Positions 8,916 through 62,314 are shown, counted from the stretch's first letter. The stretch: DNA of 64,000 nt from Candidatus Magasanikiibacteriota bacterium (GCA_003482855.1 DMXO01000005.1:99719-163718), one strand, 5' to 3'. Numbers and translations are program-made. Notes: generated by a model from the letters alone, not told the origin.

Positions 8916-9317
8916 TTGACTTCTCCTGATGTATGGTACGAGACGCTCGATAAACCAAGTTTTAATCCACCAAATTGGGTATTTGCACCAGTATGGACAG
9001 TATTGTTTGTATTGATAGGTGTTGCTCTGTATATAGTTTGGGATAGGAGCTTTTTGTTTTTTCGTAAAAAACTAAGGACAGCGCTCAATATATTTGCAAT
9101 ACAAATCATGCTTAATATCCTATGGTCATGGTTGTTTTTTTATTTTCGTAACCCTACTCTTGCGTTTGTCGAGATAGTCATGTTACTTGCTGTTATTATA
9201 TGGAATATGTTTGTTTTTTATCGCATAGATAGACGCGCAGGCTTTTTGATTTTACCTTACGCTGTGTGGGTTAGTTTTGCTATGGTTTTGAATGCCACCC
9301 TAGTTATTCTCAATTAA
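8916..9317 (+). CDS. tspO: TspO/MBR family tryptophan-rich sensory protein
   Basis: WYETLDKPSFNPPNWVFAPVWTVLFVLIGVALY, a Trp-rich, 5-TM pattern typical of TspO. Confidence 0.7.
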   Translation: MTSPDVWYETLDKPSFNPPNWVFAPVWTVLFVLIGVALYIVWDRSFLFFRKKLRTALNIFAIQIMLNILWSWLFFYFRNPTLAFVEIVMLLAVIIWNMFVFYRIDRRAGFLILPYAVWVSFAMVLNATLVILN

Positions 9318-9407
9318 TGTGGATAACTTTTATTTAAGGGAGCTAAAGCTTGACAATATCTAGCGAATGGTGTATTATCTACCTGCTATTATTTTAAGAA
9401 AAGACAT

Positions 9408-9575
9408 ATGGCTTCTAAGTCAAAAGAGCGTAAAAATCGCAAAAAAATGAAGTGTTCTGAATGTGGAACAATCACTTATTTTACCCGTAAAAATGTTACC
9501 TTGCAGAATCGTCTTGAACTCAACAAGCATTGCAAACATTGTGGTAAGCACACATTGCATAAAGAAACGAAATAA
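9408..9575 (+). CDS. rpmG: 50S ribosomal protein L33
   Basis: The 55-aa [58 protein letters not shown] has the L33 CxxC...CxxC zinc ribbon and the conserved C-terminal HKETK. The ORF track missed it because it is under 60 aa. Confidence 0.85.
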
Positions 9576-9633
9576 CGGTATACTAAAACAGTCTTTCAAA
9601 AAGGCTGTTTTTATAACCTCATTACTAATTTTT

Positions 9634-10458
9634 ATGTTTTATCTCCGTGCTATTTTTCGTAGCATATACGATGCCCGGTGGCTTACAGAACAAAAAGACA
9701 ACGGCAAGAAAGCTGCGAATTATATTGTTTTATTTATTTTGTTACTTTCAGCAATCTATGCGGGCTATCTTGCCACTACATTGCCACCACAGATGAGAAC
9801 TATCCGTGATACAGTTTTTGCCCAAGTTCCGTCATTCACGGCTGATATCCGTGATGGCATTTTGGAAGTAAGTAATTTGGAACAGCCATTTGAATATGCA
9901 GGCACATCAGATGGACAATCATTTCGTGTCGTGGTGGATACAGTTAATACAAGTACTATAGTGGTAGATGATACTTTATCAAACAAAGAAGAAAATATAT
10001 TATTAATTACCCGTGATCAATTGGTGGTGCGTGACGCAGCATCTGGTAAGACGACTCTTCAGGATTTTTCTGAGGTGCCAGATATGCACACAGATAGGGA
10101 GGAGATTGTGCGATGGACTGATGATTTTCTTGGTAAAGAGTCGTCTTTTTTTGTTTTTTTGCTTATAGCATGGTTTATACTTTTTACTTTTGGTAAAGTG
10201 GTTTATTTACTTATTCTTACAAGTCTGGTTTTTGTCATAGCCCGTCTTGCAAAAAAAGATAATTGGAAATTTGGGCAGATATACACTATGGGACTTTTTG
10301 CAATTACTGGTCCAAGCATTTTGGTGGGGATTATGCATCTGTATAGGCAGGATATCCCCTACGCATACACCATACTTACGCTTGGATTATTGTTGTATGT
10401 TGTATTTCGTGAGCAAAAACATAAAGAGATTTCGCCTGCAAAAGAAGAAGAAAAGTAA
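9634..10458 (+). CDS. hypothetical membrane protein (N-terminal TM, extracytoplasmic domain, C-terminal TM cluster)
   Basis: The track ORF 9463-10458 overlaps rpmG in another frame. The first in-frame ATG after the rpmG stop is at 9634 (MFYLRAIF...). Confidence 0.45.
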   Translation: MFYLRAIFRSIYDARWLTEQKDNGKKAANYIVLFILLLSAIYAGYLATTLPPQMRTIRDTVFAQVPSFTADIRDGILEVSNLEQPFEYAGTSDGQSFRVVVDTVNTSTIVVDDTLSNKEENILLITRDQLVVRDAASGKTTLQDFSEVPDMHTDREEIVRWTDDFLGKESSFFVFLLIAWFILFTFGKVVYLLILTSLVFVIARLAKKDNWKFGQIYTMGLFAITGPSILVGIMHLYRQDIPYAYTILTLGLLLYVVFREQKHKEISPAKEEEK

Positions 10459-10467
10459 TAAAAATAA

Positions 10468-10497
10468 AAACTACCCTCATGATGGGTAGTTTTTATT
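10468..10497 (+). terminator. rho-independent terminator
   Basis: AAACTACCC-tcatgat-GGGTAGTTT followed by TTTATTTT. Confidence 0.75.
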
Positions 10498-10511
10498 TTA
10501 TCTGCTGACTT

Positions 10512-10635
10512 GCAGGCGCGGTAGGAAATCTCACTCGGCACTTTGTGCCTCTTGGGGAAACCTTCTGGTTTCCCCAACCTTTCCTCAGCATATGAAACCT
10601 ATCGGTTTCACCCTTCCGCAGTTCGATTCCTCTCT
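10512..10635. repeat. tRNA-linked conserved structured element, copy B
   Basis: A 16-nt copy (gcaggcgcggtaggaa) of the tRNA-Trp 3' end, then atctcactc and a core homologous to copy A. Hairpin 1 carries compensatory changes (GGGGAAACC/GGTTTCCCC vs CGAAAACC/GGTTTTCG). It ends with GTTCGATTCCT, identical to the tRNA-Trp T-loop. Hairpin terminators bracket it on the plus strand. Confidence 0.6.
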
Positions 10636-10696
10636 ATTTGTTAATTTATCTGCTAACAACAAAATAACACCATGTTTGTGTAGTGTTATTTTATCG

Positions 10697-10767
10697 CAGG
10701 CGCGGTAGGAATCGAACCTACGCTAACGGTTTTGGAGACCGTAGTACTACCATTATACGACGCGCCC
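10697..10767 (-). tRNA. tRNA-Trp (CCA anticodon), no encoded 3' CCA
   Basis: Acceptor GGGCGCG/CGCGCCT, anticodon loop CTCCAAA, T-loop TTCGATT, 71 nt. Confidence 0.8.
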
Positions 10768-10876
10768 ATGATGCAGATAAATATACATTATTTTTTGAGG
10801 GAAATCAAGCCTGTCAATAGATTTGATATAAGGAGGTATCAATGCTACAATATAGCTACATCATAATCATTTTTTT

Positions 10877-12403
10877 ATGTACAAAAAATATATTGTCGCG
10901 TGTATTTTCTTATTATTTTTTATTGTTGCGCCAGGACATATCTTTGCACAAAATAGTGTGTCGACAGATACCCCAGTAGAAGATACTAGGGTGGTGGAGG
11001 CCTTTATATCGTCTGAAGATATTGTACAGGTTGGCAAAAAGATTATTTTTGGTGCTTCAAATTCTATTGTGCCCGAAGATAACACTATTGCCCCGTCATA
11101 TCGATGGGATTTTGGTGATGGTTTTTTTGAAGTTGGAGAAGAAGTCGTACACCAGTATGGTCACGTGGGCACATATGATGTTACTTTGTCACTTTCGTAT
11201 GACGGTACAGTGTACAAGGCTAGTAAGTCTGTTTTTGTCTATGATACACGCGCATTGCTTATCATAGATACGCAGAAACAAGACGATATCAATCTCATCA
11301 CACGACAAGCGCAAGAACAGGGTGTGGCTCTCAAGGTTTTGTCTCCCGAAGGGTTTGAAGGAGATTTCTTCAATGAGGATTCTTTGGTTAAGTTGATAGG
11401 TGAACAGGCCTCATATATCAAGGATTCTAGTTTACTTTTGTTTTATACCAAATCATTGCGTGGCTTGCAGGCTTTTACGAGCTATTGGCAAGGTCTTGAT
11501 GACGAGACAAAAGGACTTATCCAGAAAAAGTTTTTTGTTGTCATTACTGATGGCAATATAGACGTGGCGTCGCATGGGGTATTCCAGAGTTATCAAATTA
11601 TACTTCCTCCCTACATTTTGCTGACTCGACCAGAGGCGCTTAATCCAATTTTGGGGTTAAAAAATCTTGGAGATGTTGAGGCTGAACTTTTGGGGCGGGG
11701 TATAGAATTTATACATATTGATGAAAATAATGGGAAGTCTCCTTTTTATATATTATCCCAACTCATTACTTATTTTATTGAGAGAGGTATTTCACCCGAT
11801 AGCGTGTACCTCATTTTGGCTTTGCCTTTTCTTGCCTTTATCGTGATATTTTGTCGGCATGTTATTGGTATTAGTACATTTGGTGTGTATACGCCAGTGA
11901 TTATCACGGTGGCTTTTTATATGCTTGGTTTGTGGTTTGGTCTTTTTTCTTTTCTTTTTGCTGTTATCACGAGTTATGCGGTCAAATATATATTTGATAG
12001 ATTTGAATTATTATATTTGCCCAAAGTCGCACTCAATCTTTCGTTTATTGCTCTATCTTTTTTGTTGCTTATACTCCTCATGTTGTGGCTTGGTACCCCT
12101 GTGTCTCTGTCTGTGGCAGTATTTCCTATGCTTGTGATGTCTACATTATCTGAAAAATTTATGACAGCGAAGTCTGAGGAAGGTTTGCGTAATGCTATTC
12201 TTGGTGTTATCGAGACACTTGTTGTTGTTATAGGTTCATATTATCTTATGTTGTGGGCATCATTCAATAATCTTGTCATTTCATGGCCAGAAGTTGTTCT
12301 GTTGCCACTTGTGGGGATTTTGTTATTGGGGAAATTTAGTGGACTTCGGGTGAGTGAATATTTTAGATTTAGAAGTCTTTTTAGTGAGCATACTGAAGAA
12401 TAA
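10877..12403 (+). CDS. secreted PKD-domain protein with central alpha/beta domain and C-terminal ~7-TM bundle
   Basis: It has a signal peptide (FLLFFIVAPGHIFA) and a PKD motif (YRWDFGDG...HQYGHVGTYDVTL). About 6-7 hydrophobic helices occupy the last ~200 residues. It is immediately upstream of the ATP-grasp fusion. Confidence 0.6.
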   Translation: MYKKYIVACIFLLFFIVAPGHIFAQNSVSTDTPVEDTRVVEAFISSEDIVQVGKKIIFGASNSIVPEDNTIAPSYRWDFGDGFFEVGEEVVHQYGHVGTYDVTLSLSYDGTVYKASKSVFVYDTRALLIIDTQKQDDINLITRQAQEQGVALKVLSPEGFEGDFFNEDSLVKLIGEQASYIKDSSLLLFYTKSLRGLQAFTSYWQGLDDETKGLIQKKFFVVITDGNIDVASHGVFQSYQIILPPYILLTRPEALNPILGLKNLGDVEAELLGRGIEFIHIDENNGKSPFYILSQLITYFIERGISPDSVYLILALPFLAFIVIFCRHVIGISTFGVYTPVIITVAFYMLGLWFGLFSFLFAVITSYAVKYIFDRFELLYLPKVALNLSFIALSFLLLILLMLWLGTPVSLSVAVFPMLVMSTLSEKFMTAKSEEGLRNAILGVIETLVVVIGSYYLMLWASFNNLVISWPEVVLLPLVGILLLGKFSGLRVSEYFRFRSLFSEHTEE

Positions 12404-12409
12404 TATTGT

Positions 12410-14764
12410 ATGAGCTTTTTTACCAAAGCAAGAGGTATACTGGGGATGAACGCGCGTAATTTGCATTACGTCGGGCGTTATAATACTGCATTGAACAAAA
12501 AATTTGCTGACAACAAGTTGTATACCAAAAATTACCTTATGACACGTGGTGTGGGTGTGGCCAAGATTTATGCAGTCATAAAAAAATATAAAGAATTATC
12601 TTTGCTTAACCCCAAAACATTGCCTGAGAGTTTTGTTATAAAACCAAATCGCGGGTATGGCGGTGAAGGCATTACCGTGATAGTAGAGCACAAAGGGAAA
12701 AAATTTGTGGACATAGATGGCATTGAGCGCACATGGACAGAACTATACCATCACATGGTGTCTATCTTGGATGGTAAGTATGCTATCTCGGGTTTGTTTG
12801 ACCAGGTTATTATCGAAGAGCGTCTTGAGTCAAATGAATATTTTTCGCGATTTGTCGAACGTGGTCTGCCTGACGTGCGTATCATTGTTTTCAATTATGT
12901 TCCTATTATAGCAATGCTTCGTCTGCCCACTGCGGAATCTCATGGTAAAGCAAATTTACATCTAGGTGCGATTGGTGTTGGTATTGATATTGTGACAGGC
13001 AAAGCGACATATGCAGTACACCACAATAAATTTATTCGTCATCTTCCGAATACTGAAAAGGTGACTGATATACAGGTACCACAGTGGGATGAAATATTAC
13101 TTCTCGCATCTCAGGCACAACATGCAAGCCAAATTAAATTTTTGGCTGTAGATATTGTACTCACGAAGACGGGAATAAAAATTCTTGAGCTAAATGCGCG
13201 AGCCGGACTTGGGGTACAAATAGCAAATCAGGTACCCCTTAAACACAGGTTAAAAAAGGTGGAAGACCTCAAAGTATCTAATCCTGAAAAAGGCGTTGCT
13301 GTAAGTAAGGCATTATTTAGTTCTCTTGTTGAAAAAGAAAAAGAGCGTGAAGGTACAGCAGGTGAGAAAAAGGTGATAGGGTTATATGAGGATATTGATA
13401 TTTTGAATACGTCGTATATATCTGTTCCTGCAAAAATTGATCCGCATCTTGACTATGTAGCATTTGATTCGTCACTCACAGAGCTTGACCCAAAAGAACG
13501 ATATGTTGACATTGTATTAAAAGGAGAACGTGTACGTTTTCCATTTAAAGTAGAGTCTCTTCCTCATGGATACAAGGCATTGATTGGTGGTAAGGTGCTT
13601 CAAAATTTTTTAATTGATCCCCACCGCCAAAGAGAGATCCCCGAGAACGGGATTAAAAAAATGACACAACAAAAAGTTAATGAGAAAATTATTGCAAATA
13701 TTGACAAAAAACTTTTTGAACTAGATAAACAGCTCAATATTTTACCATTGGTAAAACCAATGAATGTGCTTGAAGAAAAGGAACATTTTTTCAACGATAG
13801 AAGTAAGTCTCCTACATTTTTGTATAGAAGATCAAAAGTTGATTTAGTTCAGATATTGCGTGAAGTGAGTTCATTGCCGCGTGATATTGAACATCCATTT
13901 GCTCCTTTATTTATCAAAAAAATAGATGAGATTGTCACAAAGTTGCAATTGGTTGATGCAGTTGGTACGTTGGATTTTGTCCATGCATCAGAAGAATTGT
14001 ATGGGAAGGTAGATAAACAGTTGTACACGAAGGCTGTACAATATATCAAAAAGAATCCTATACGAGAAGATGCGAGCAAGTTACTAAATCACAAACAAGT
14101 GATCAGACGTCTAGAGTCTTTTCTTGTGGCACATAAGTTATCTAATTGGAAAATAAAAATTTCTGAAAGACAAACAGCTGATATTGCGATCAACAAGAGT
14201 GGCTCTGTCTTACTTAAATCAGGCATTCGTTTTACGGAGAATAGACTCAGGGCTGTTATTGCCCATGAGATATGTACACATGTATATCGATACGAAAATG
14301 GCACCATGCAGAAATATCATTTGTTCGGACAGGGTACTGCCAATTATATTTTGACTGAAGAGGGACTGGCTATTTATAACCAGAAGGTTTTGGATATTCC
14401 ACTTGGTGAAAAGGATCACTGGGCTGCATTGCGTGTAATTGCGGCGTATCATGCGCGTGATATGGCTTTTCATGAGTTATTTGTATTTCTCAAAGAGACG
14501 TATCATTTGGATGATAATTCTGCATGGAAAACATGTTTGAGAGCGAAGAGAGGTATGAGTGATACAAGTCAGCATGGCGCATTTACCCGAGACATTGTGT
14601 ATTTCAAAGGATATATGGAAGTCAAAAAATATATTGATATGCACGGGCGTAGGGGACTCAAGGAATTGTATGCGGGTAAAATTCATATAGACGATGTGCC
14701 TTATCTCAAACACATTGGTGAGTACAAAATTAAATATCTGCCACCAGAAGAAATAGAAATATAA
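12410..14764 (+). CDS. RimK-related ATP-grasp ligase (alpha-L-glutamate-ligase-related family) fused to a C-terminal DUF1704/QEGLA-type HExxxH metallopeptidase-like domain
   Basis: The N-terminal GILGMNARNLHYVGRYN and FVIKPNRGYGGEGITVI...ILELNARAGLGVQI are ATP-grasp motifs. The C-terminal AVIAHEICTHVYRYENG (HExxxH) and ILTEEGLAIYNQ match the QEGLA motif family. Confidence 0.7.
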   Translation: MSFFTKARGILGMNARNLHYVGRYNTALNKKFADNKLYTKNYLMTRGVGVAKIYAVIKKYKELSLLNPKTLPESFVIKPNRGYGGEGITVIVEHKGKKFVDIDGIERTWTELYHHMVSILDGKYAISGLFDQVIIEERLESNEYFSRFVERGLPDVRIIVFNYVPIIAMLRLPTAESHGKANLHLGAIGVGIDIVTGKATYAVHHNKFIRHLPNTEKVTDIQVPQWDEILLLASQAQHASQIKFLAVDIVLTKTGIKILELNARAGLGVQIANQVPLKHRLKKVEDLKVSNPEKGVAVSKALFSSLVEKEKEREGTAGEKKVIGLYEDIDILNTSYISVPAKIDPHLDYVAFDSSLTELDPKERYVDIVLKGERVRFPFKVESLPHGYKALIGGKVLQNFLIDPHRQREIPENGIKKMTQQKVNEKIIANIDKKLFELDKQLNILPLVKPMNVLEEKEHFFNDRSKSPTFLYRRSKVDLVQILREVSSLPRDIEHPFAPLFIKKIDEIVTKLQLVDAVGTLDFVHASEELYGKVDKQLYTKAVQYIKKNPIREDASKLLNHKQVIRRLESFLVAHKLSNWKIKISERQTADIAINKSGSVLLKSGIRFTENRLRAVIAHEICTHVYRYENGTMQKYHLFGQGTANYILTEEGLAIYNQKVLDIPLGEKDHWAALRVIAAYHARDMAFHELFVFLKETYHLDDNSAWKTCLRAKRGMSDTSQHGAFTRDIVYFKGYMEVKKYIDMHGRRGLKELYAGKIHIDDVPYLKHIGEYKIKYLPPEEIEI

Positions 14765-14790
14765 AACGGCTTGTCTAGCCGTTTTTCTTT
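14765..14790 (+). terminator. rho-independent terminator
   Basis: AACGGCT-tgtct-AGCCGTT followed by TTTCTTTT. Confidence 0.7.
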
Positions 14791-14832: not shown

Positions 14833-16215
14833 TTGTGTATGCCTTCTCAAAAACAAATACCTAAAAAAGCATATATAGTCACGGTCGATATGGGGTATGG
14901 ACATCAGCGTGCTGTATACCCTCTGCATGATATTGCCGCAGATGTCGAAGGACTCTCTATGAACGGGTATGGAATCATCAATGCTAATAAATATGGAGGT
15001 ATACCAAAGAGTGATCAACGACGATGGGAGGGCGGTAGGTCAATTTATGAGACGATTTCACGCATGAAACATCTACCCATTGTAGGCAATTGGATTTTTG
15101 GCATCATGGATTATGTACAGCGTATTGAACCATTTTATCCTGCTCGTGATCTTTCCAAACCAACTGTTCAAGTGCGTCAGATATATAGCATGATTAGACA
15201 TGGGTGGGGTAAACATTTGATTGATGTGCTCAATAGTCGCGAGCACCTTCCTTTTATTAGTTCATTTTTTACTACCGCTTTTTTTGCAGAAGAACATAAT
15301 TATAAAGGGGAAATTTATTGTATTTGTACTGACACTGATATTAGTCGGGCATGGGTACCTCTTGAGCCAGCTAAGTCGCGTATCAATTACCTTGTCCCTA
15401 ACAGGCGTGTAAAAGAACGTTTAGGTTTGTATGGCATACGTCCTGAAAAAATTTTTGTGACGGGTTTCCCTTTGCCAAAAGAAAATATAGGAGGTTCCAC
15501 GTTAAAAGTTTTAAAGCAATCTTTGGGCCATCGCATTACTCATTTGGATCCTCATGGTATATACCGACATAAATACAAAAACACTATTCATGAGTTTTTG
15601 GGTACACAATTTGATAGTGATGTCTATGACAAAAATCATCCTCTTACTATCACATTTGCAGTCGGTGGGGCAGGTGCTCAACGTGAATTGGGGGCGACTA
15701 TAGCAGAGAGTCTTCATGAACATATTACTAAGGGACATGTACATCTCAATCTCGTGGCCGGCATACGAAATGATGTATATCGATATTATCAAGCAATACT
15801 CAAAGATATGGATTTATCAAACAAAGGCGATGCCCATGTATCCATACTGTTTGCGGAGACCAAATTTGATTACTTCAAGAAATTTAATACTGTTCTCAAT
15901 GAGACTGATGTTTTGTGGACCAAACCAAGCGAACTATCTTTTTATGCTGGGCTCGGGCTTCCTATTATCATGGCTCCTACGATAGGCTCACAAGAAGATT
16001 TCAATAGACAGTGGCTCGCTTCTACAGGGGCAGGTGTATTACAAGAAGATCCAAAATATACCGGAGAGTGGTTGTTTGATTGGCTTGAGTCTGGTTGGCT
16101 TGCACAGGCCGCTATGGAAGGGTTTTTGAATGCACCACGCAATGGCGCGTATCATATTGAAGATGTAGTACTCAAGAATAAAAGAAGCGAGATAGAGGAT
16201 ATGCATTTACTTTAG
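14833..16215 (+). CDS. GT-B glycosyltransferase, MGDG-synthase/UgtP-like (GT28 family)
   Basis: The N-terminal YIVTVDMGYGHQRA parallels GNGHVQVA of diacylglycerol glycosyltransferases. The C-terminal TKPSELSFYAGLGLPIIMAPTIGSQEDFNRQWL..GAG is the GT-B donor-binding pattern. Confidence 0.55.
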   Translation: MCMPSQKQIPKKAYIVTVDMGYGHQRAVYPLHDIAADVEGLSMNGYGIINANKYGGIPKSDQRRWEGGRSIYETISRMKHLPIVGNWIFGIMDYVQRIEPFYPARDLSKPTVQVRQIYSMIRHGWGKHLIDVLNSREHLPFISSFFTTAFFAEEHNYKGEIYCICTDTDISRAWVPLEPAKSRINYLVPNRRVKERLGLYGIRPEKIFVTGFPLPKENIGGSTLKVLKQSLGHRITHLDPHGIYRHKYKNTIHEFLGTQFDSDVYDKNHPLTITFAVGGAGAQRELGATIAESLHEHITKGHVHLNLVAGIRNDVYRYYQAILKDMDLSNKGDAHVSILFAETKFDYFKKFNTVLNETDVLWTKPSELSFYAGLGLPIIMAPTIGSQEDFNRQWLASTGAGVLQEDPKYTGEWLFDWLESGWLAQAAMEGFLNAPRNGAYHIEDVVLKNKRSEIEDMHLL

Positions 16216-16303
16216 TTTGAAAGTTTATAAAGTTCATAAAGTATTGTGTATCACAGTTCTTTATAGACTTTATAGACTTTATGAACTTTATAACTTTATA
16301 GAC
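16216..16303. repeat. intergenic imperfect inverted repeat built from TAAAGTT/CTTTATA-type short tandem units
   Basis: gtttATAAAGTTCATAAAGTattg ... (CTTTATAGA)x2 ACTTTATGAACTTTATaa. It could act as a hairpin terminator or attenuator. Confidence 0.6.
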
Positions 16304-16304
16304 T

Positions 16305-17210
16305 ATGTCGTGGTTTTTTATTGCACTTGTCGGATATTTTTTTCTTGCCCTTACTTTCATACTCGACAAACTTATCCTAACCAAATCTGTAGGTAAACCG
16401 GTTGTGTATACATTTTACTCGACTATTTTTATGTTTGGGGCTTTTTTTGCTTGGCCGTTTGGCGTGGAATTGCTCAATGGGTTTGATTGGATATGGGCTA
16501 TGGTGTCAGGCGTTGCGTTTGGTTTGGGACTCTGGGCTCTCTATACTGCAGTCAAACGTGGTGAAACATCGCATATCAACCCATTCAATGGCGCAATGGT
16601 AAGTATCGCGACATATGCATTATCTGCTTATTTCCTTGGAGAAAGACTAACCTCTTTACAGGTAGGTGGTATAGTAATATTGGTAGGTGCTTCCTTGTTG
16701 TTATCGTTTGAAAAATCGCGCAACCATAATGGATTTCATATGGGATTTGTGTGGGCCGGTGTGTCCGGAGTTTTATTTGCTCTGTCACACGTAAGTGCAA
16801 AGTATTTGTATGATGTATACCCATTTCTTACGGGGTTTGTGTGGACGCGCGCGATGACAGGTCTTGTAGGATTATTGGTATTATTGTTTCCATCCGTACG
16901 CAAGACATTTAGAAAAAAATACGAGAAACCGAAAACAAATGCAAAACGTCATGCAGGCATTATAGTTGTATTGACAAAAATCTTTGGTGTGATTGCTGTT
17001 GTGCTTATACAATATGCATCAGCTATTGGATCAGTTTCTCTGGTTATGGCTATGAGTGGATTGCAGTATGCATGTATGTTTGTAATTATATTGTTATGTA
17101 CCAAGTTTATCCCGCGTGTATTCAAAGAATATATAACCAAGCGTGAACTTGTGGTAGAGTGGTTGGCTATAGTACTCGTGGGTCTTGGATCAATTTTATT
17201 TGTATTATAA
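16305..17210 (+). CDS. EamA/DMT-superfamily transporter
   Basis: A ~10-TM protein with two EamA-like halves (GETSHINPFNG...). Confidence 0.6.
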   Translation: MSWFFIALVGYFFLALTFILDKLILTKSVGKPVVYTFYSTIFMFGAFFAWPFGVELLNGFDWIWAMVSGVAFGLGLWALYTAVKRGETSHINPFNGAMVSIATYALSAYFLGERLTSLQVGGIVILVGASLLLSFEKSRNHNGFHMGFVWAGVSGVLFALSHVSAKYLYDVYPFLTGFVWTRAMTGLVGLLVLLFPSVRKTFRKKYEKPKTNAKRHAGIIVVLTKIFGVIAVVLIQYASAIGSVSLVMAMSGLQYACMFVIILLCTKFIPRVFKEYITKRELVVEWLAIVLVGLGSILFVL

Positions 17211-17214
17211 TAGT

Positions 17215-18213
17215 ATGAAAAAAATTATGTTTTTTATTTTTAGTATCATTGTCTGTTTATTGCTCTTGTATGTATTTCTTTTAGTGACAAGTATCAAGAA
17301 ATATCCTGTTGAGTATGGTATAAGTTTCAATCAAAATCATGCATCTTCTCTCGGATTAGATTGGAAAAAGGCATACGAGGATATGCTTGGGGAAATCAAA
17401 CCAAAATTTATCCGTATCGCCGCCATGTGGAGTGAAATTGAACATACTGAAGGGGTATATAATTTTTCAGATGTTGATTGGATGATGGACAAAGCTGCTG
17501 AGTATGGCACGAAAGTAACTCTCGTGGTGGGGCAAAAGGCTCCACGTTGGCCTGAGTGCCATGTGCCAGAGTGGGTTGATGCGTTATCTGACACAGAGTA
17601 TAGAGATAAATTATTTGCCTATGTGTCAGCTGTGATAGGACGCTATCAACATCATGATGCTTTGGAAGTTTGGCAAATTGAAAATGAACCATTTATCAAG
17701 TTTAGATTTGGAGAATGTGAAAGATTTCGCCAAGATCTTGTGCAAGGGGAAGTTGACCTTGTGCATACATTGGACGAAGTGCATTGGGTTATGATTACGG
17801 ACAGCGGAGAGTTGAGTACATGGTGGGATGCGAGCAAGGCGGGTGATTTGTTTGGTACGACATTGTATCGTATCGTACGCACCCCTGGTGGTCATATATG
17901 GACATATGATTGGTTGCCAGCTTCTTTTTATCGTTTCAAGACACGTTTGCTCGGGTTGCATATGGAACGTATGTATGTGGCAGAATTACAGGCAGAGCCA
18001 TGGTTCACCGATTCTTCACCCGATGATACACCGGTTTCCGAACAAGAAAAGACTATGAACATAGATAGACTTAGAAAACATATAGATTATGTAGAGCGTA
18101 TTGGCACCAATCGCGCATATTTGTGGGGAGCAGAGTGGTGGTATTGGATGAAAGAAAAACAAGGTAGATCTGACTATTGGAATTTGGTCAAGGATGTAAT
18201 AAAAGGAAATTGA
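17215..18213 (+). CDS. membrane-anchored clan GH-A glycoside hydrolase (TIM barrel, NEP motif)
   Basis: It has an N-terminal TM and WQIENEPF, the NEP acid/base motif of GH5/GH42-type enzymes. The family is not resolved. Confidence 0.5.
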   Translation: MKKIMFFIFSIIVCLLLLYVFLLVTSIKKYPVEYGISFNQNHASSLGLDWKKAYEDMLGEIKPKFIRIAAMWSEIEHTEGVYNFSDVDWMMDKAAEYGTKVTLVVGQKAPRWPECHVPEWVDALSDTEYRDKLFAYVSAVIGRYQHHDALEVWQIENEPFIKFRFGECERFRQDLVQGEVDLVHTLDEVHWVMITDSGELSTWWDASKAGDLFGTTLYRIVRTPGGHIWTYDWLPASFYRFKTRLLGLHMERMYVAELQAEPWFTDSSPDDTPVSEQEKTMNIDRLRKHIDYVERIGTNRAYLWGAEWWYWMKEKQGRSDYWNLVKDVIKGN

Positions 18214-57679: not shown

Positions 57680-58633
57680 TCATTTATCATTTTGTACCGC
57701 TTCAATCAACATCTGTGCAATTTTCCCATTCCACTGCTTGTATGTTGCTTCGTATGCAAACAATAAGCCTGGGCGAGAGTTTAGTTCGAGAAGTTTGAAA
57801 CCTTCTTTTGTATTCATGAAGTCTGCAGAGTAGAGGAGCGGTCGATATTTGTCTACTTTTGGTTGAATATCGTGGCAAATTATATTTACTACGTCTTTTG
57901 GTATATCTGAAACTTGTACAGTAAAAGAATCACCGCCTTGGGAAACATTTGCCAAGAAGCTTCCTTTTTTGGGCATACGCATGAGGGAGTGAGCTATTTC
58001 CCCATTGATTACCTCGACTCGCAGATCATGATTTCCTTGTACCAGATTGTGGATACCGCACGTTGCATCGAGAAATTCTTGGAGTAAGACATCGTGCCAA
58101 TCATCGTACGTGTGTTCACTCACTTCGCCGGCATTGATAATAAAAATTCCACGTCCTTCAGTGAGATAATTTTTTTTGAGCACAACGCGATCACCATTGC
58201 CAATAGCATATTCCTTCATCTTGCCAATGAATTCTTCATATGAATTGATTAGGTCTGTGCGCGGGGAGATTTCTTCGAATGTCTGAGCTGTGAGATGTTT
58301 ATCAAGAGCAAGCTCGTCAAAATCAGGATGGTTGATCACTTTACAATCATAAATTTTTGGGATTGTATTTTTGTCATCACGATTAAAAATCAAATCTGCC
58401 TTTATTTTATTTTTGTATTCTTTAAGTTCGCCATTATCAAAATACCATCCGTGAGAGAAAACTCCATTCCCCTCGTATGAATTTTTTCCTCGGACAAAGT
58501 AAACGTCGATGGGGTACTTCGTTATGTCAGAGATTACATCCTGGTATCTATCAAAGTATTCACCTTCGTTGAAAGGATAACCCATTGGCTCTGGGTCGGA
58601 GAAGTAAATTGTGATTGTTTTTCTTCTATTCAT
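57680..58633 (-). CDS. ATP-grasp domain protein (RimK/GshB-like)
   Basis: RVVLKKNYLTEGRGIFIINAGE and FKLLELNSRPGLLFAYE are ATP-grasp B/C-domain motifs. The substrate is unknown. Confidence 0.5.
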   Translation of the reverse strand: MNRRKTITIYFSDPEPMGYPFNEGEYFDRYQDVISDITKYPIDVYFVRGKNSYEGNGVFSHGWYFDNGELKEYKNKIKADLIFNRDDKNTIPKIYDCKVINHPDFDELALDKHLTAQTFEEISPRTDLINSYEEFIGKMKEYAIGNGDRVVLKKNYLTEGRGIFIINAGEVSEHTYDDWHDVLLQEFLDATCGIHNLVQGNHDLRVEVINGEIAHSLMRMPKKGSFLANVSQGGDSFTVQVSDIPKDVVNIICHDIQPKVDKYRPLLYSADFMNTKEGFKLLELNSRPGLLFAYEATYKQWNGKIAQMLIEAVQNDK

Positions 58634-58713: not shown

Positions 58714-60003
58714 ATGTTTATATTTGATTCAAAAAAATTTCCAGATAGTCCGGGTATTTATCTATTTTATAATGATAAAAGAGAGCTTATTTATGTTGGA
58801 AAAGCTACGTCTTTGAAAGATAGAGTTGCGTCGTATTTTCGCAACCCCCTCCCAACCTCCCCCTTAAAAATGGGGAGGCGTCCGATTGAGTTGCTTATAA
58901 ATGAAGTATCAGATGTCAAAATAATACAAACTGAATCAGTGTTGGAAGCGATTATTTTGGAAGCTAATACTATTAAGAAATTTCAACCAAAATATAATGT
59001 AGATTTGAAAGATGACAAGTCGTGGAATTATATCGTCATGACTAAAGAAAATTATCCACAAGTAAAAACTGTTCGCCAACATGAAATAGAAAATTCGAAA
59101 TTCGATCCTCGATTTAATCGGGGACGAAATTTGAAATTTAAATTTGGTCCTTATCCAGGGTTAAAAACACGTGAAATGATGAAACTGTTGCAGAGGTTGT
59201 TTTTTATTTCGCACTGTAAGCCTTGCCAGCCTGGTAAGCCTTGTAGGCCTTGTTTGTACTATGCAATGGAACAATGCTTAGGCGTATGTACCGGAGAAAT
59301 TACGTCACAAGAGTATAAAAAGAAAGTTATTCGTCCCTTAGTTATGTTTTTGAGAGGAAACAAAAAAGGCGTTATACGACAACTTGGAAAACAAATGAAA
59401 GAAGAGAGTAAGAAGGAAAATTTTGAAGAAGCTGGTCGTTTGCGAAATCAAATCAGCGCTTTGCAGAGAATACAGGATATAGCATTGTTGAATAAGTCAT
59501 TTACTAGTCAACAAAAATTCGAAATTCGAAATTCGAAATTCGAATTTTCAAGAATAGAAGGTTATGATATTTCAAATTTGGGTGAGGCGGGCAAAGTAGG
59601 ATCCATGGTAGTGTTTGAAAATAGCGAGTCGAACAAATCACAATATAGAAAATTTAAAATCAAAAATGTTCTTGGTCAAAGTGATGTTGGATGTCTTCAT
59701 GAGGTGTTGGAACGCAGATTAAAACATAGTGAGTGGAGAATGCCGAATGTTATTTTGGTAGATGGGGGAGTACCACAGGTCAATAGAACAGTGGAAACTA
59801 TTCGAGTAAATAAATTTAAAATACCAGTCGTTGGCATTGCCAAAGGACCCAAACGTAAGAAGAATGAATTTATTTTAGGGAGCAAAGAAAAAGAATTTGT
59901 GAAGTGGGTAAACAAAAATCAAGAATTGTTGGTTCGTGTGAGGGACGAAGCCCATCGGTTTGCTATCAGCTATCAGAGGAAGTTGCGCAAAATCAAACAC
60001 TAA
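58714..60003 (+). CDS. uvrC: excinuclease ABC subunit C, short form lacking the C-terminal (HhH)2 domain
   Basis: GIY-YIG domain (PGIYLFYNDKRELIYVGKATSLKDR, YNV), UvrBC region, RIEGYDISN, and a C-terminal RDEAHRFAISYQRK. It contains heptamer repeats (aaattcg)x4 and a CCTCCCC/GGGGAGG palindrome insertion. Confidence 0.85.
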   Translation: MFIFDSKKFPDSPGIYLFYNDKRELIYVGKATSLKDRVASYFRNPLPTSPLKMGRRPIELLINEVSDVKIIQTESVLEAIILEANTIKKFQPKYNVDLKDDKSWNYIVMTKENYPQVKTVRQHEIENSKFDPRFNRGRNLKFKFGPYPGLKTREMMKLLQRLFFISHCKPCQPGKPCRPCLYYAMEQCLGVCTGEITSQEYKKKVIRPLVMFLRGNKKGVIRQLGKQMKEESKKENFEEAGRLRNQISALQRIQDIALLNKSFTSQQKFEIRNSKFEFSRIEGYDISNLGEAGKVGSMVVFENSESNKSQYRKFKIKNVLGQSDVGCLHEVLERRLKHSEWRMPNVILVDGGVPQVNRTVETIRVNKFKIPVVGIAKGPKRKKNEFILGSKEKEFVKWVNKNQELLVRVRDEAHRFAISYQRKLRKIKH

Positions 60004-60027
60004 TCTCAACATTAATTTACATCAATA

Positions 60028-60056
60028 AAAAATCGCGTAAATGACGCGGTTTTTTT
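60028..60056 (+). terminator. rho-independent terminator after uvrC
   Basis: AAATCGCGT-aaatg-ACGCGGTTT followed by TTTTT. Confidence 0.75.
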
Positions 60057-60282
60057 ATATTCCACTAAATATTTTATTAAATATGTAATGGAACGGAGGC
60101 GAACGATGGACGTCTACCTCGATGTGTGATGGATCTCCGGTCCATCGTTTCCCTCCATCCCTCCCTTGTGGGAAAAAGAACGTGCGACCCTGCATCGCCT
60201 CATGTCAACCGCCACAGTCGTCGTGGCGATCAGGGTCTTCTTGTCAGGTCACCAGACCGGCTGATCGGGAACTCGGAGTTCC

Positions 60283-60606
60283 CTACGCGACCGGGTCGAT
60301 CCCCTTGGACTCGGGCGCTTCTTCGGCCAGCGGGGCCTCGGGCTCGGGCGCGGCGTCGGCTTCGGTGCCCTCGGCGGTGGGCTCGAGGACCTCGGTCGCG
60401 GTGGGCGCGGGGCAGCCCTGTCCACAGCCGCAGTCGGCTTCTTCGGCCAGCGGGGCCTCGGCTTCGGCGGCCTCGGTGACGCGGAAGTCCACAGGGAGCT
60501 CCCCGTGGTCGCGCAGGAACTGCTCGCAGGCCTTGTTGAGCTCTTCTTCAGGCATGACGCCCATGACGACCTTGGCGAAAATCGTGAGGAACTGAGTCTC
60601 GTTCAT
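60283..60606 (-). CDS. small acidic Cys-containing protein encoded in a high-GC island (107 aa from MNETQFLTIFAKVV...)
   Basis: AAGAGGT sits 3 nt upstream of the ATG. The codon third positions are almost all G/C, unlike every other gene here. It has internal EAPLAEEA direct repeats flanking DCGCGQGC. A GGGAACTC-c-GAGTTCCC hairpin follows the stop. Confidence 0.4.
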   Translation of the reverse strand: MNETQFLTIFAKVVMGVMPEEELNKACEQFLRDHGELPVDFRVTEAAEAEAPLAEEADCGCGQGCPAPTATEVLEPTAEGTEADAAPEPEAPLAEEAPESKGIDPVA

Positions 60607-60820
60607 GATACCTCTTTGGTAGGTGTGGCAGTTGACTACCTTAGAGAAACTACATGGTCTTGCGCGTTTTGTCAATTTTTTAATTTACATTTTGTTTTTT
60701 GAACAGATATGTGGATAACATGGGTTTTCATGGTTGCAAAGAATAGTAAAGTGGGATATAATGGATGTACGTGGGGAAGAGTGGGGAAAATGCTTGTCTC
60801 TCTACTTTCTAAATACAATT

Positions 60821-61252
60821 ATGTTCATCGGAGAATATTCCCACAATTTAGATGAAAAAGGTCGTCTTGCGGTCCCCAAAAAGTTCCGCGCTGATCTTTC
60901 CAAAGGTGCAGTTGTAACAAGGGGACTCGACAACTGTCTTTTTCTTTATACGAAAACAGAATGGAAAAAGCTTGCTGATAAGCTCGCGACGTTGCCATTC
61001 TCACAAGCAAATACACGTGCGTTTGCGCGTCTCATGCTCGCAGGAGCTATGGATGTCTTGGTAGATAAACAAGGTAGAATCATGGTCCCTGATTATCTAC
61101 GCAGTTTTGCTGGTCTCAAAAAAGGAGTTGTCGTGGCAGGTCTATACAACCGTCTCGAACTTTGGGATCAGGAAAAGTGGGAAGAATACAAGACAAAGAC
61201 TGAGAAAGAGAGTAATACGATTGCAGAGCAGATGTTTGAACTCGGTGTTTAA
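60821..61252 (+). CDS. mraZ: transcriptional regulator MraZ
   Basis: MFIGEYSHNLDEKGRLAVPKKFR, the canonical MraZ start. Two repeated half-domains. The track ORF begins upstream at 60734. Confidence 0.85.
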   Translation: MFIGEYSHNLDEKGRLAVPKKFRADLSKGAVVTRGLDNCLFLYTKTEWKKLADKLATLPFSQANTRAFARLMLAGAMDVLVDKQGRIMVPDYLRSFAGLKKGVVVAGLYNRLELWDQEKWEEYKTKTEKESNTIAEQMFELGV

Positions 61253-61265
61253 TTCCTTAAAAGAA

Positions 61266-61346
61266 TTATCATGTATCATTTATCATGTATCATGTATTGG
61301 TTCACTTGGTAGCAAATAAATGATATATGATAAATGTACATGATAT
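61266..61346. repeat. intergenic inverted repeat made of (ATCATKT)n heptamer units
   Basis: atcatgt atcattt atcatgt atcatgt ... aaatgatatatgataaatgtacatgatat, between mraZ and rsmH. Confidence 0.55.
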
Positions 61347-62314
61347 TTATGAAACACGTGCCAGTGCTGTTAAATGAAGTCATTGAAGAACTTAATCTTA
61401 TCTCTGGCATGAATGTCATTGATGGTACTTTGGGTGATGCAGGACATGCAGAAGAAATTTTGAAAGTGACAGCTCCAGATGGCAAGTTGCTTGGTATAGA
61501 TGCTGACGCAGAAGCAATCTTGCGCGCAAAGAAATATCTGTATGATTTTGGAGATAGGGTATTGTTTGCACGAAATAATTTTGAACACATACAGCAAATA
61601 GTGAAAGAACAATCATTTGAACATGTGTCGGGGATATTGATGGATTTTGGCTGGTCAAGTCCTCAGTTTGAAGAGAGGGGAAGAGGATTTAGTTTCTTCA
61701 AACGTGATGAGCCTTTGGATATGCGCTATGACACATATCTCAAGTGTCCACATGAAGCAGACAACCCTCCACTGAGCGTCGATAATAGACCATTGTATGG
61801 TAGATGCACTGCAGCAGAGTTGGTCAATATGAAGTCGCAAACAGAATTGTCATACATATTTGATACGTATGGTGAAGAGAAATTGAGCATAGACATAGCA
61901 CGCGCTATAGTGGAGAAGAGAGTTGACTATGTGCTCGAGACGGTGGGTGATCTCGTAGATGTGATTCTCGATGTATATCGCAAGAAGCTCAAGACAGACA
62001 AAGAAATACCTTGGGTGGGAGGCAATCATCCTGCGACCAAAGTCTTTCAAGCATTACGTATTGCAGTGAATGATGAACTGGGTGTCATAGAGCGTGTATT
62101 GCCACAGGCGATAGACATATTGGAGAAGCATGGCAGGCTTGCTGTGATCACGTTTCACTCTATTGAGGATAGAATCGTGAAGCATTATTTCAAATCACAA
62201 CATAAGAAAACAATTAATCTTATACATAAAAAACCTATTGTTGCGTCTGAACAGGAGGTACAAGAAAACCCTCGATCCAGATCTGCAAAATTACGGGTTG
62301 TTGAAAAATTATGA
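61334..62314 (+). CDS. rsmH: 16S rRNA (cytosine1402-N4)-methyltransferase
   Basis: HVPVLLNEVIEEL, DGTLGDAGHA, and the SAM-binding fold; full-length protein. The true start is possibly at 61349. Confidence 0.9.
   Translation: MYMIFMKHVPVLLNEVIEELNLISGMNVIDGTLGDAGHAEEILKVTAPDGKLLGIDADAEAILRAKKYLYDFGDRVLFARNNFEHIQQIVKEQSFEHVSGILMDFGWSSPQFEERGRGFSFFKRDEPLDMRYDTYLKCPHEADNPPLSVDNRPLYGRCTAAELVNMKSQTELSYIFDTYGEEKLSIDIARAIVEKRVDYVLETVGDLVDVILDVYRKKLKTDKEIPWVGGNHPATKVFQALRIAVNDELGVIERVLPQAIDILEKHGRLAVITFHSIEDRIVKHYFKSQHKKTINLIHKKPIVASEQEVQENPRSRSAKLRVVEKL

Follow-up and report, generated by a model that had tools for sequence, protein, structure and literature searches.

A two-gene module of Patescibacteria that joins an RloC-type ligase and a MATCAP-type carboxypeptidase in one chain, beside a 7TM protein with an invariant C-terminal glutamate

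What is ligated, and what is removed, by a bacterial enzyme that carries both a peptide ligase and a peptidase and is encoded next to a membrane protein? We asked this of a locus in a window of 64,000 nucleotides from a Candidatus Magasanikiibacteriota bacterium (GCA_003482855.1, DMXO01000005.1:99719-163718; positions are counted from the first letter of this stretch). There, an earlier note had pointed to a pair of genes at 10877-14764 and suggested a membrane-associated cycle of ligation and removal. That idea is supported by our analysis, and it can be given a candidate substrate: gene 1 encodes a membrane protein with seven transmembrane helices (7TM) whose last residue is an invariant glutamate, gene 2 encodes an enzyme of three domains, and we tentatively propose that the enzyme extends and trims the C-terminal tail of its own partner.

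Both open reading frames (ORFs) were confirmed, the first at 10877-12403 (+, 508 aa) and the second at 12410-14764 (+, 784 aa), with 6 nt between the stop of gene 1 and the start of gene 2. The deposited annotation of the gene 2 protein (P0001, 772 aa) places the start 12 codons downstream of the ATG at 12410, but the 784-aa start is more likely because the orthologues align from its first methionine (MSFF..., residue 1). In Pseudomonas aeruginosa, the rloABC genes, from which several names used below derive, encode a secreted retropepsin (RloA), a 7TM inactive transglutaminase (RloB) and an ATP-grasp protein (RloC) (PMC12239564). The parts of the gene pair are as follows.

10877-12403, + strand: gene 1, secreted PKD / alpha-beta ectodomain / RloB-type 7TM membrane protein, 508 aa (ORF, Pfam and NCBIfam matches, 120 orthologues of like architecture)
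10877-10948, + strand: signal peptide, residues 1-24 (MYKKYIVACIFLLFFIVAPGHIFA), inferred from the hydrophobic segment 6-24
11009-11203, + strand: PKD domain, residues 45-109 (PKD profile, 3e-10)
11246-11788, + strand: flavodoxin/Rossmann-like alpha/beta ectodomain, residues ~124-304, replacing the inactive transglutaminase of canonical RloB
11807-12379, + strand: 7TM bundle of the 7TM_transglut (RloB) family, residues 311-501 (PF14402, 3.6e-29; NF052267, 1.6e-20)
12329-12400, + strand: predicted cytoplasmic C-terminal tail of 24 residues, 485-508 (GKFSGLRVSEYFRFRSLFSEHTEE), its terminal Glu-Glu codons at 12395-12400
12410-14764, + strand: gene 2, three-domain enzyme, 784 aa (ATP-grasp ligase, retropepsin-like, MATCAP-type metallocarboxypeptidase)
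12425-13309, + strand: RloC/TIGR02291-like (RimK-related) ATP-grasp ligase domain, residues 6-300 (TIGR02291, 5.4e-79; PF14397, 8e-60)
13370-13615, + strand: retropepsin-like (RloA/RimB, PF05618-type) domain, residues ~321-402
13439-13447, + strand: D344-P345-H346, the DTG-equivalent position by motif alignment
13655-13741, + strand: long helix joining the retropepsin-like to the peptidase domain, residues ~416-444 (AlphaFold2 secondary structure, helix 121-149 of the linker model)
13703-14722, + strand: MATCAP/TMCP-family (DUF1704, QEGLA-type) metallocarboxypeptidase domain, residues 432-771 (PF08014, 3.6e-44; TIGR02421, 6.4e-49)
14264-14281, + strand: HEICTH motif
14354-14371, + strand: TEEGLA motif

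The enzyme contains all the motifs on which the earlier note had relied (GILGMNARNLHYVGRYN, FVIKPNRGYGGEGI, ILELNARAGLG, HEICTH and TEEGLA), and the two domain identities drawn from them, a TIGR02291-like ATP-grasp and a DUF1704 peptidase, were borne out by profile searches in one and the same polypeptide. PF14397 (ATPgrasp_ST) matches residues 16-285 with 202.8 bits (gathering score 31.4), and TIGR02291 is covered over 298 of its 317 positions with 265.5 bits, below its curated cut-off of 314.2. PF08014 (MATCAP, formerly DUF1704) matches residues 460-771 with 151.6 bits (cut-off 27), and TIGR02421 (QEGLA) residues 432-769 with 167.2 bits, below its curated cut-off of 338.65. As the scores for TIGR02291, TIGR02421 and, for gene 1, NF052267 fall under the whole-protein cut-offs of NCBIfam, the two proteins are relatives of these equivalog families, not members of them; judged by its profile score, the ligase domain is a close TIGR02291 relative and not an equivalog.

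The key residues of both catalytic domains are invariant in 121 of 121 sequences: K78, E136, E137, D155, R157, D248, E260, N262 and R264 in the ATP-grasp domain, and H619, E620, T623, H624, E650, E651 and G652 in the MATCAP domain. As in ATP-grasp enzymes generally, K78, E136/E137, D155, R157, D248, E260 and N262 would bind nucleotide and magnesium. A sequence search of the PDB with the ATP-grasp domain gave no match, and the profile of the whole fusion matched MATCAP entries only. The peptidase motif reads EEGLA, as in eukaryotic MATCAP, rather than QEGLA, and the domain aligns with human MATCAP (7z5g; profile E 8.5e-22) through HEIGTH and an identical TEEGLA, the identity being low and confined to the catalytic core. 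In the human MATCAP/TMCP enzymes the metal site is made up of the HExxxH and EEG motifs, and E281 cannot be dispensed with (PMC10499314). Membership of this family would lead one to expect that the bacterial domain removes a C-terminal tyrosine, phenylalanine or glutamate.

Between ligase and peptidase lie ~130 residues without a Pfam match, and here the earlier two-part account of the enzyme, correct for its ends, had overlooked a third domain. The Pfam search gave no PF05618 match for this region even at E 10; four ordered motifs, read by eye, recall RloA/RimB-type proteins, and an hhalign comparison with one Legionella RloA-type sequence was weak (P 0.03, 44 columns only). An AlphaFold2 model of residues 296-445, built from 46 sequences, has a core predicted local distance difference test (pLDDT) of 93-96 and consists of an all-beta domain followed by the long helix. 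Its retropepsin fold most resembles solved members of the PF05618/RloA-RimB family, and the confident all-beta model together with this similarity therefore identifies the middle domain as retropepsin-like and of the RloA/RimB family. The DTG of the Legionella protein corresponds to D-P-H in the middle domain (D in 110, P in 103 and H in 105 of the 121 sequences), an equivalence set by motif alignment and not by residue-level structural superposition. Because the DTG motif is replaced in this way, the middle domain is probably not an active aspartic protease.

For gene 1, the description of a secreted PKD protein ending in a 7TM bundle stood, with two features to be added: an ectodomain that is not a transglutaminase and the invariant C-terminal glutamate. 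The hydrophobic segment 6-24 is separated from the first membrane helix by a stretch of 287 residues, and the structure model of the ectodomain (pLDDT 90.8) shows a PKD domain and a flavodoxin-like fold. Neither a transglutaminase fold (in the model) nor PF14400 (in the Pfam search) was found, whereas the canonical RloB homologues all carry PF14400. The 7TM bundle is the sole region common to the gene 1 protein and RloB: PF14402 matches with 102.4 bits (gathering score 25) over profile positions 56-247 of 248, and NF052267 (RloB), whose cut-off is 900, gives 73 bits from the C-terminal 190 residues alone. The hydropathy profile, read with the positive-inside rule, predicts seven helices with the N-terminus outside and the C-terminus inside the cell.

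How well is this arrangement kept? Counting one genome per species, a relative of the enzyme is encoded in 345 genomes, and the locus analyses cover the best 80 of these. All 80 loci, from Magasanik-, Kerfeld-, Uhr-, Peregrini- and Gracilibacteria and related groups, carry the full-length fusion, and the proteins in the 120 best clusters at 90% identity are all 761-811 aa long, with the ATP-grasp and MATCAP Pfam pair. Directly upstream and on the same strand is the PKD-7TM gene in 74 of the 79 testable loci. When the ORFs of the 80 loci were clustered, the fusion and the 7TM gene were the only broadly conserved families and a third conserved gene was not found (one large cluster proved to be antisense ORFs inside the fusion gene); flanking genes are common to 12 close relatives only. 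The region 10877-14764 has the look of a self-contained operon of two genes in a genome of the candidate phyla radiation (CPR)/Patescibacteria, that of a Candidatus Magasanikbacteria organism for which a 100% identical protein is deposited. Relatives keep both the fusion and the gene pair.

A further feature of the pair is the end of the partner protein. Its last residue is glutamate in 120 of 120 partner proteins, among orthologues down to 32% identity; the terminus is -EE in 106 of them and Gln-, Asn- or Ser-Glu in the others, with terminal glutamate runs of 1 to 4. Counted from the C-terminus, the entropy is 0 bits at position -1 and 0.63 at -2, but ~3 bits, near random, at -3 to -7; the constraint therefore lies on the end itself. 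Canonical RloB shares the juxtamembrane motif but its end is unconstrained, and the ligases of the canonical cassettes examined have no MATCAP domain. In 141 diverse RloB representatives (50% clustering) the last residue is K in 20, A in 17, D in 15, P in 15 and E in 8, and among 120 Legionella-type RloB proteins it is K in 59 and E in 14. A Fisher test of the terminal-glutamate contrast gives 2e-65, without correction for phylogeny.

These observations suggest to us a membrane-associated, reversible C-terminal modification, in which the ligase would extend the tail of the 7TM partner and the MATCAP domain would trim it, a proposal to which we give slightly less than an even chance. In this mechanism, the 7TM protein would expose its ectodomain, PKD plus alpha/beta, to the outside and keep inside a short tail ending in Glu, usually Glu-Glu; the ATP-grasp domain would activate the terminal carboxylate of that tail and attach at least one amino acid, for which the analogy with RimK makes glutamate the likeliest candidate; and the MATCAP-type zinc carboxypeptidase domain, on the same polypeptide, would take the added residues off, so that tail length would reflect the balance of the two activities. 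The retropepsin-like domain would be a remnant of the RloA/RimB peptidase that opposes the canonical ligase, probably serving as a scaffold only, and the MATCAP domain a functional substitute for this lost peptidase. Ectodomain and 7TM bundle might couple an outside signal to access to the tail.

We favour the tail as substrate for seven reasons: (i) both catalytic domains are intact, their key residues being invariant; (ii) the genes of the pair are adjacent in nearly all loci and form the only two conserved families; (iii) the terminal glutamate is invariant, the constraint falls on the protein, and canonical RloB does not have it; (iv) the predicted topology puts the tail in the cytoplasm, beside the enzyme; (v) a Halobacterium plasmid ORF, described below, joins the 7TM module to a ligase of this ATP-grasp family, which shows that both parts act together at the cytoplasmic face; (vi) there are precedents, RimK and RimB acting on ribosomal protein S6 (PMC12239564) and, on tubulin, TTL and the MATCAP/TMCP enzymes, the latter of which take terminal Tyr and Glu off acidic tubulin tails and make polyglutamate chains shorter (PMC10499314); and (vii) in Proteobacteria, MATCAP homologues are linked to another ATP-grasp family, the GshB-like one, so that the pairing is seen more than once.

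Several points weigh against tail modification. In 5 of the 79 testable loci (L043, L051, L054, L063 and L064) other genes precede the fusion and no 7TM gene adjoins it, and the statistics of the tail are uncorrected for phylogeny. The tail is not a universal substrate in the wider family, since canonical RloB has no acidic end and since, in a Halobacterium relative, the C-terminus of the 7TM bundle is not free. This relative, an archaeal Rosetta-stone fusion of the RloB and RloC modules, is an unannotated ORF of 584 aa on plasmid CP007061.1 of Halobacterium sp. DL1 (L085:5179-6933, + strand), flanked by transposases, in which 7TM_transglut (residues 51-243) stands at the N-terminus of ATPgrasp_ST (residues 286-557); it shares the PF14402 and PF14397 families with the CPR pair, but is without ectodomain, retropepsin-like domain and MATCAP domain. 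Finally, RloA is periplasmic in P. aeruginosa, which suggests that the product of the canonical ligase reaches the periplasm and so favours an exported product.

From these points comes the most serious alternative, itself unlikely in our judgement: the ligase would make a free peptide or poly-amino acid or modify a small molecule, the 7TM protein would export this product or anchor the enzyme, MATCAP would trim or recycle the product in the cytoplasm, and the -EE end would be a docking or pseudo-substrate (autoinhibitory) element sitting in an active site. Loss of the three RloA paralogues of P. aeruginosa causes hypo-osmotic lethality, which deletion of rloB or rloC rescues, as fits a product that crosses the membrane by way of RloB or along with it, and RimK also makes free poly-alpha-glutamate (PMC12239564). 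The tail is absent from canonical RloB, and the Halobacterium ORF pairs 7TM and ligase with no free 7TM C-terminus. By itself, however, a free product gives no reason for an invariant last residue amid variable tail lengths and neighbouring residues; moreover, the 7TM family has no known transport activity, and a fused cytoplasmic peptidase would destroy the product before export unless it were regulated. The periplasmic RloA, the tail-less RloB and the Halobacterium fusion thus favour a free or exported product for the wider family, and for the CPR module we continue to prefer modification of the tail.

It is improbable, in our view, that the enzyme acts on a different protein, S6 as in the case of RimK or another acidic C-terminus, and that the 7TM protein merely regulates or localises it. 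The RimK-related nature of the ATP-grasp domain, RimK and RimB acting on S6, and the five loci with the enzyme but no adjacent 7TM gene speak for such a substrate; yet the strict linkage of two genes and the partner's own invariant glutamate point most simply to the partner as target, an approximate E. coli S6 query detected no S6 gene (rpsF) in the window, and gene 1 is the only one of the 50 large ORFs in the window to end in -EE.

Marginally less probable again is a target in the cell envelope, such as a peptidoglycan stem peptide or a lipid-linked precursor, with the 7TM protein as membrane platform and the ectodomain binding the wall. Pseudomonas rlo mutants are altered in cell shape and beta-lactam sensitivity and show hypo-osmotic lethality (PMC12239564), a Shewanella RloB-type mutant overproduces membrane vesicles (PMC12096838), and the PKD domain of the ectodomain is typical of surface binding. 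Against this, the conserved linkage comprises two genes and none for envelope synthesis, the characterised MATCAP members, the tubulin enzymes, act on protein C-termini, and the tail would be left unexplained. That the glutamate codons matter instead at the level of the nucleotides, as a ribosome-binding site rich in purines that serves the coupled downstream gene, is suggested in the window by the last codons GAAGAA and the gap of 6 nt, but is hardly tenable and was rejected: over 73 loci the distance from stop to start varies between -5 and 436 nt, the glutamate end is kept in 10 of 10 loci with a gap >40 nt, and GAA and GAG are both in use, so that the constraint acts on the protein and not on the DNA.

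Where, then, does this module belong? We would place it among the modification systems, of which RimK-RimB and RloABC are the types, that combine an ATP-grasp ligase with a peptidase. With RloABC, which is also present in Legionella, Aeromonas and Vibrio, it shares the PF14402 7TM bundle with its juxtamembrane G-[YL]-R-L-x-E-x-x-R-F motif, the TIGR02291/PF14397 ATP-grasp domain, the presence of an RloA-type retropepsin-fold domain, and the adjacency and conserved order of the 7TM and ligase genes. The differences are also clear: (i) the retropepsin-like domain of the CPR enzyme is fused inside a cytoplasmic protein and has DPH in place of DTG, while RloA is secreted and active; (ii) the CPR enzyme adds a MATCAP metallocarboxypeptidase; (iii) the CPR partner has a PKD and a flavodoxin-like domain instead of the periplasmic inactive transglutaminase and has gained the invariant C-terminal glutamate. 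ORF clustering of the 80 loci revealed no separate gene for a secreted RloA protease, and the enzyme has no signal peptide.

In the RimK/RimB system, too, a RimK-related ATP-grasp goes with a RimB-type domain, residues are added and removed at a C-terminus, and the (here candidate) substrate ends in Glu-Glu. However, the candidate target of the CPR module is the tail of a membrane protein and not S6, a zinc carboxypeptidase stands in for its RimB-like domain, which is probably inactive, and it is without the EAL regulator (RimA). The tubulin system of TTL/TTLL and MATCAP/TMCP1-2 (7z5g; PMC10499314) has in common with it PF08014, HExxxH, an identical TEEGLA, an opposing ATP-grasp ligase and an acidic -EE tail, but in the CPR module ligase and peptidase form one polypeptide, the ligase is of RimK/RloC and not of TTL type, and the organism has no tubulin.

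The earlier note had described, for Proteobacteria, a three-gene cassette of 7TM inactive transglutaminase, ligase and QEGLA peptidase, and this background is not supported by the proteobacterial loci examined. The Legionella and Aeromonas loci have the same three rlo genes as Pseudomonas and no QEGLA gene, the third gene being RloA (PF05618). QEGLA occurs in another cassette (loci L081:5113-7104, L083:4451-8193 and L087-L089), whose N-formylglutamate amidohydrolase (FGase) is separate or fused: in Shinella, Sinorhizobium, Aminobacter and Photobacterium it goes with an FGase and a GshB-like ATP-grasp gene. Vibrio sp. HDW18 has a fusion of FGase and QEGLA with no ATP-grasp gene adjacent, and the QEGLA gene of Pseudoalteromonas adjoins neither. 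No 7TM protein was seen within 6-7 kb of the QEGLA genes in six loci, and a cassette of QEGLA, 7TM and TIGR02291 was not found in the eight proteobacterial loci searched. As the proteobacterial loci examined keep RloA-RloB-RloC and FGase-QEGLA-GshB-like ligase apart, the cassette of the note was a merger of the two.

The QEGLA cassette resembles the CPR module in its genetic linkage of an ATP-grasp ligase with a peptidase of the MATCAP family, but the ligase is of the glutathione-synthetase-like family, an FGase is the partner, and the genes are separate or joined as FGase::QEGLA. This second linkage means that the pairing of ligase and carboxypeptidase recurs. Low salinity raises the expression of the QEGLA gene (RS17025) of Photobacterium damselae 27-fold, and the other up-regulated genes tabulated with it include the GshB gene with the adjacent number (RS17020) and rimK (52-fold) (PMC10308900); the induction of QEGLA at low salinity echoes the osmotic phenotype of rlo mutants. 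Against this background the CPR module is a chimera, made of an RloB-type 7TM bundle, an RloC-type ligase and a remnant RloA-type domain, together with a MATCAP peptidase.

The fusion is already present in databases under generic names such as 'alpha-L-glutamate ligase-like protein/TIGR02421 family' at JGI and 'tyrosine/phenylalanine carboxypeptidase domain-containing protein' at NCBI. In agreement with the earlier view that this rearranged form is undescribed, the searched literature yielded no published description of the fusion, the third domain, the operon or the tail, a mention being possible in Iyer et al. 2009, reportedly the comparative-genomics paper that defined these families; nor did it yield an assigned function for the bacterial MATCAP/DUF1704 proteins. 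The interest of the module is that a ligase, a remnant peptidase and a new peptidase lie in one chain next to a partner whose invariant glutamate points to a concrete candidate substrate, which gives a poorly understood enzyme family a testable target. In bacteria there are at least two independent pairings of a MATCAP-type peptidase with an ATP-grasp ligase, a fact that bears on the origin of the eukaryotic enzymes that modify tubulin tails, and the spread of the module through several small-genome CPR lineages suggests that it matters for surface or host-contact biology.

A bolder form of our proposal, possible but more doubtful than the modification itself, is that the module would constitute a self-contained prokaryotic 'tail code', in which a single enzyme writes and erases amino acids on the cytoplasmic Glu-Glu tail of its own 7TM receptor partner, by means of the enzyme families that act on S6 (RimK-type ligase) and on tubulin tails (MATCAP-type carboxypeptidase). 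If this were true, reversible ligation of amino acids to a C-terminus would be described for the first time on a membrane protein, and the module would be a plausible evolutionary origin of the MATCAP detyrosinases/deglutamylases as well as a key to the chemistry of RloBC.

Three further features of the window touch on the gene pair.

57680-58633, - strand: stand-alone RimK-like ATP-grasp protein, 317 aa (weak RimK, MptN and CofF family matches)
10823-10851, + strand: promoter-like site TTGATA-17-TACAAT with TG, 26 nt upstream of gene 1 (consensus scan alone)
14763-14785, + strand: terminator-like hairpin, a 9-bp stem and then a T run, overlapping the gene 2 stop codon

The stand-alone RimK-like gene lies 43 kb from the pair, between uvrA and uvrC. 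In 16 of the 80 loci, which belong to two subclades, homologues of it (~315 aa) immediately precede the PKD-7TM gene, in some cases as a tandem pair (L014:3375-4343 on the - strand, L018-L020, L023, L024, L026, L029-L031, L033, L037-L040 and L042), and the window protein shares 47% identity with the L014 neighbour. An accessory role as a second ligase beside the gene pair is conceivable for it, although its membership of the system is uncertain. The promoter-like site is weak evidence, because the regional count of such sites is not above the shuffled expectation. Between the gene pair and the upstream DUF1189 gene lie a tRNA-Trp gene (10696-10767, -) and a second terminator-like hairpin (10461-10499).

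In one Peregrinibacteria locus (L043:1083-8340) a repetitive secreted surface protein of 1603 aa precedes the fusion in place of the 7TM gene, and the retropepsin-like motif there is more degenerate (AKVSFE as against AKIDPH). The module also occurs in third-party annotation (TPA) records titled 'uncultured Gammaproteobacteria bacterium' (L004, L014-L018, L020, L022-L024, L026 and L030) and in one labelled 'Nitrospirota bacterium' (L073). Two of the former, L004 and L017, show Magasanikbacteria synteny downstream, with DUF6938, EamA and GH genes 63-66% identical, and the labels of these records are probably wrong.

Downstream of the pair, at 14833-18213 (+), the window holds genes for a DUF6938/MGDG-synthase-like (monogalactosyldiacylglycerol synthase-like) glycosyltransferase, an EamA transporter and a GH42/GH10-like hydrolase, which are syntenic with the module in 11-12 close relatives only and fall outside the conserved unit. 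Further along, GC content rises at 60001-62000, especially at 60122-60675 (0.459 against ~0.38), in a region of overlapping low-complexity ORFs rich in Ala, Ser, Gly and Arg on both strands, where no Rfam family reached threshold. Upstream of the pair, four tRNA genes (Asp, Thr, Val and Trp), all on the minus strand, lie within 5.5 kb (5345-10767), and among them are small ArsR-like, thioredoxin-like and TspO-like genes, read by eye, and the DUF1189 gene, which has a PF06691 match.

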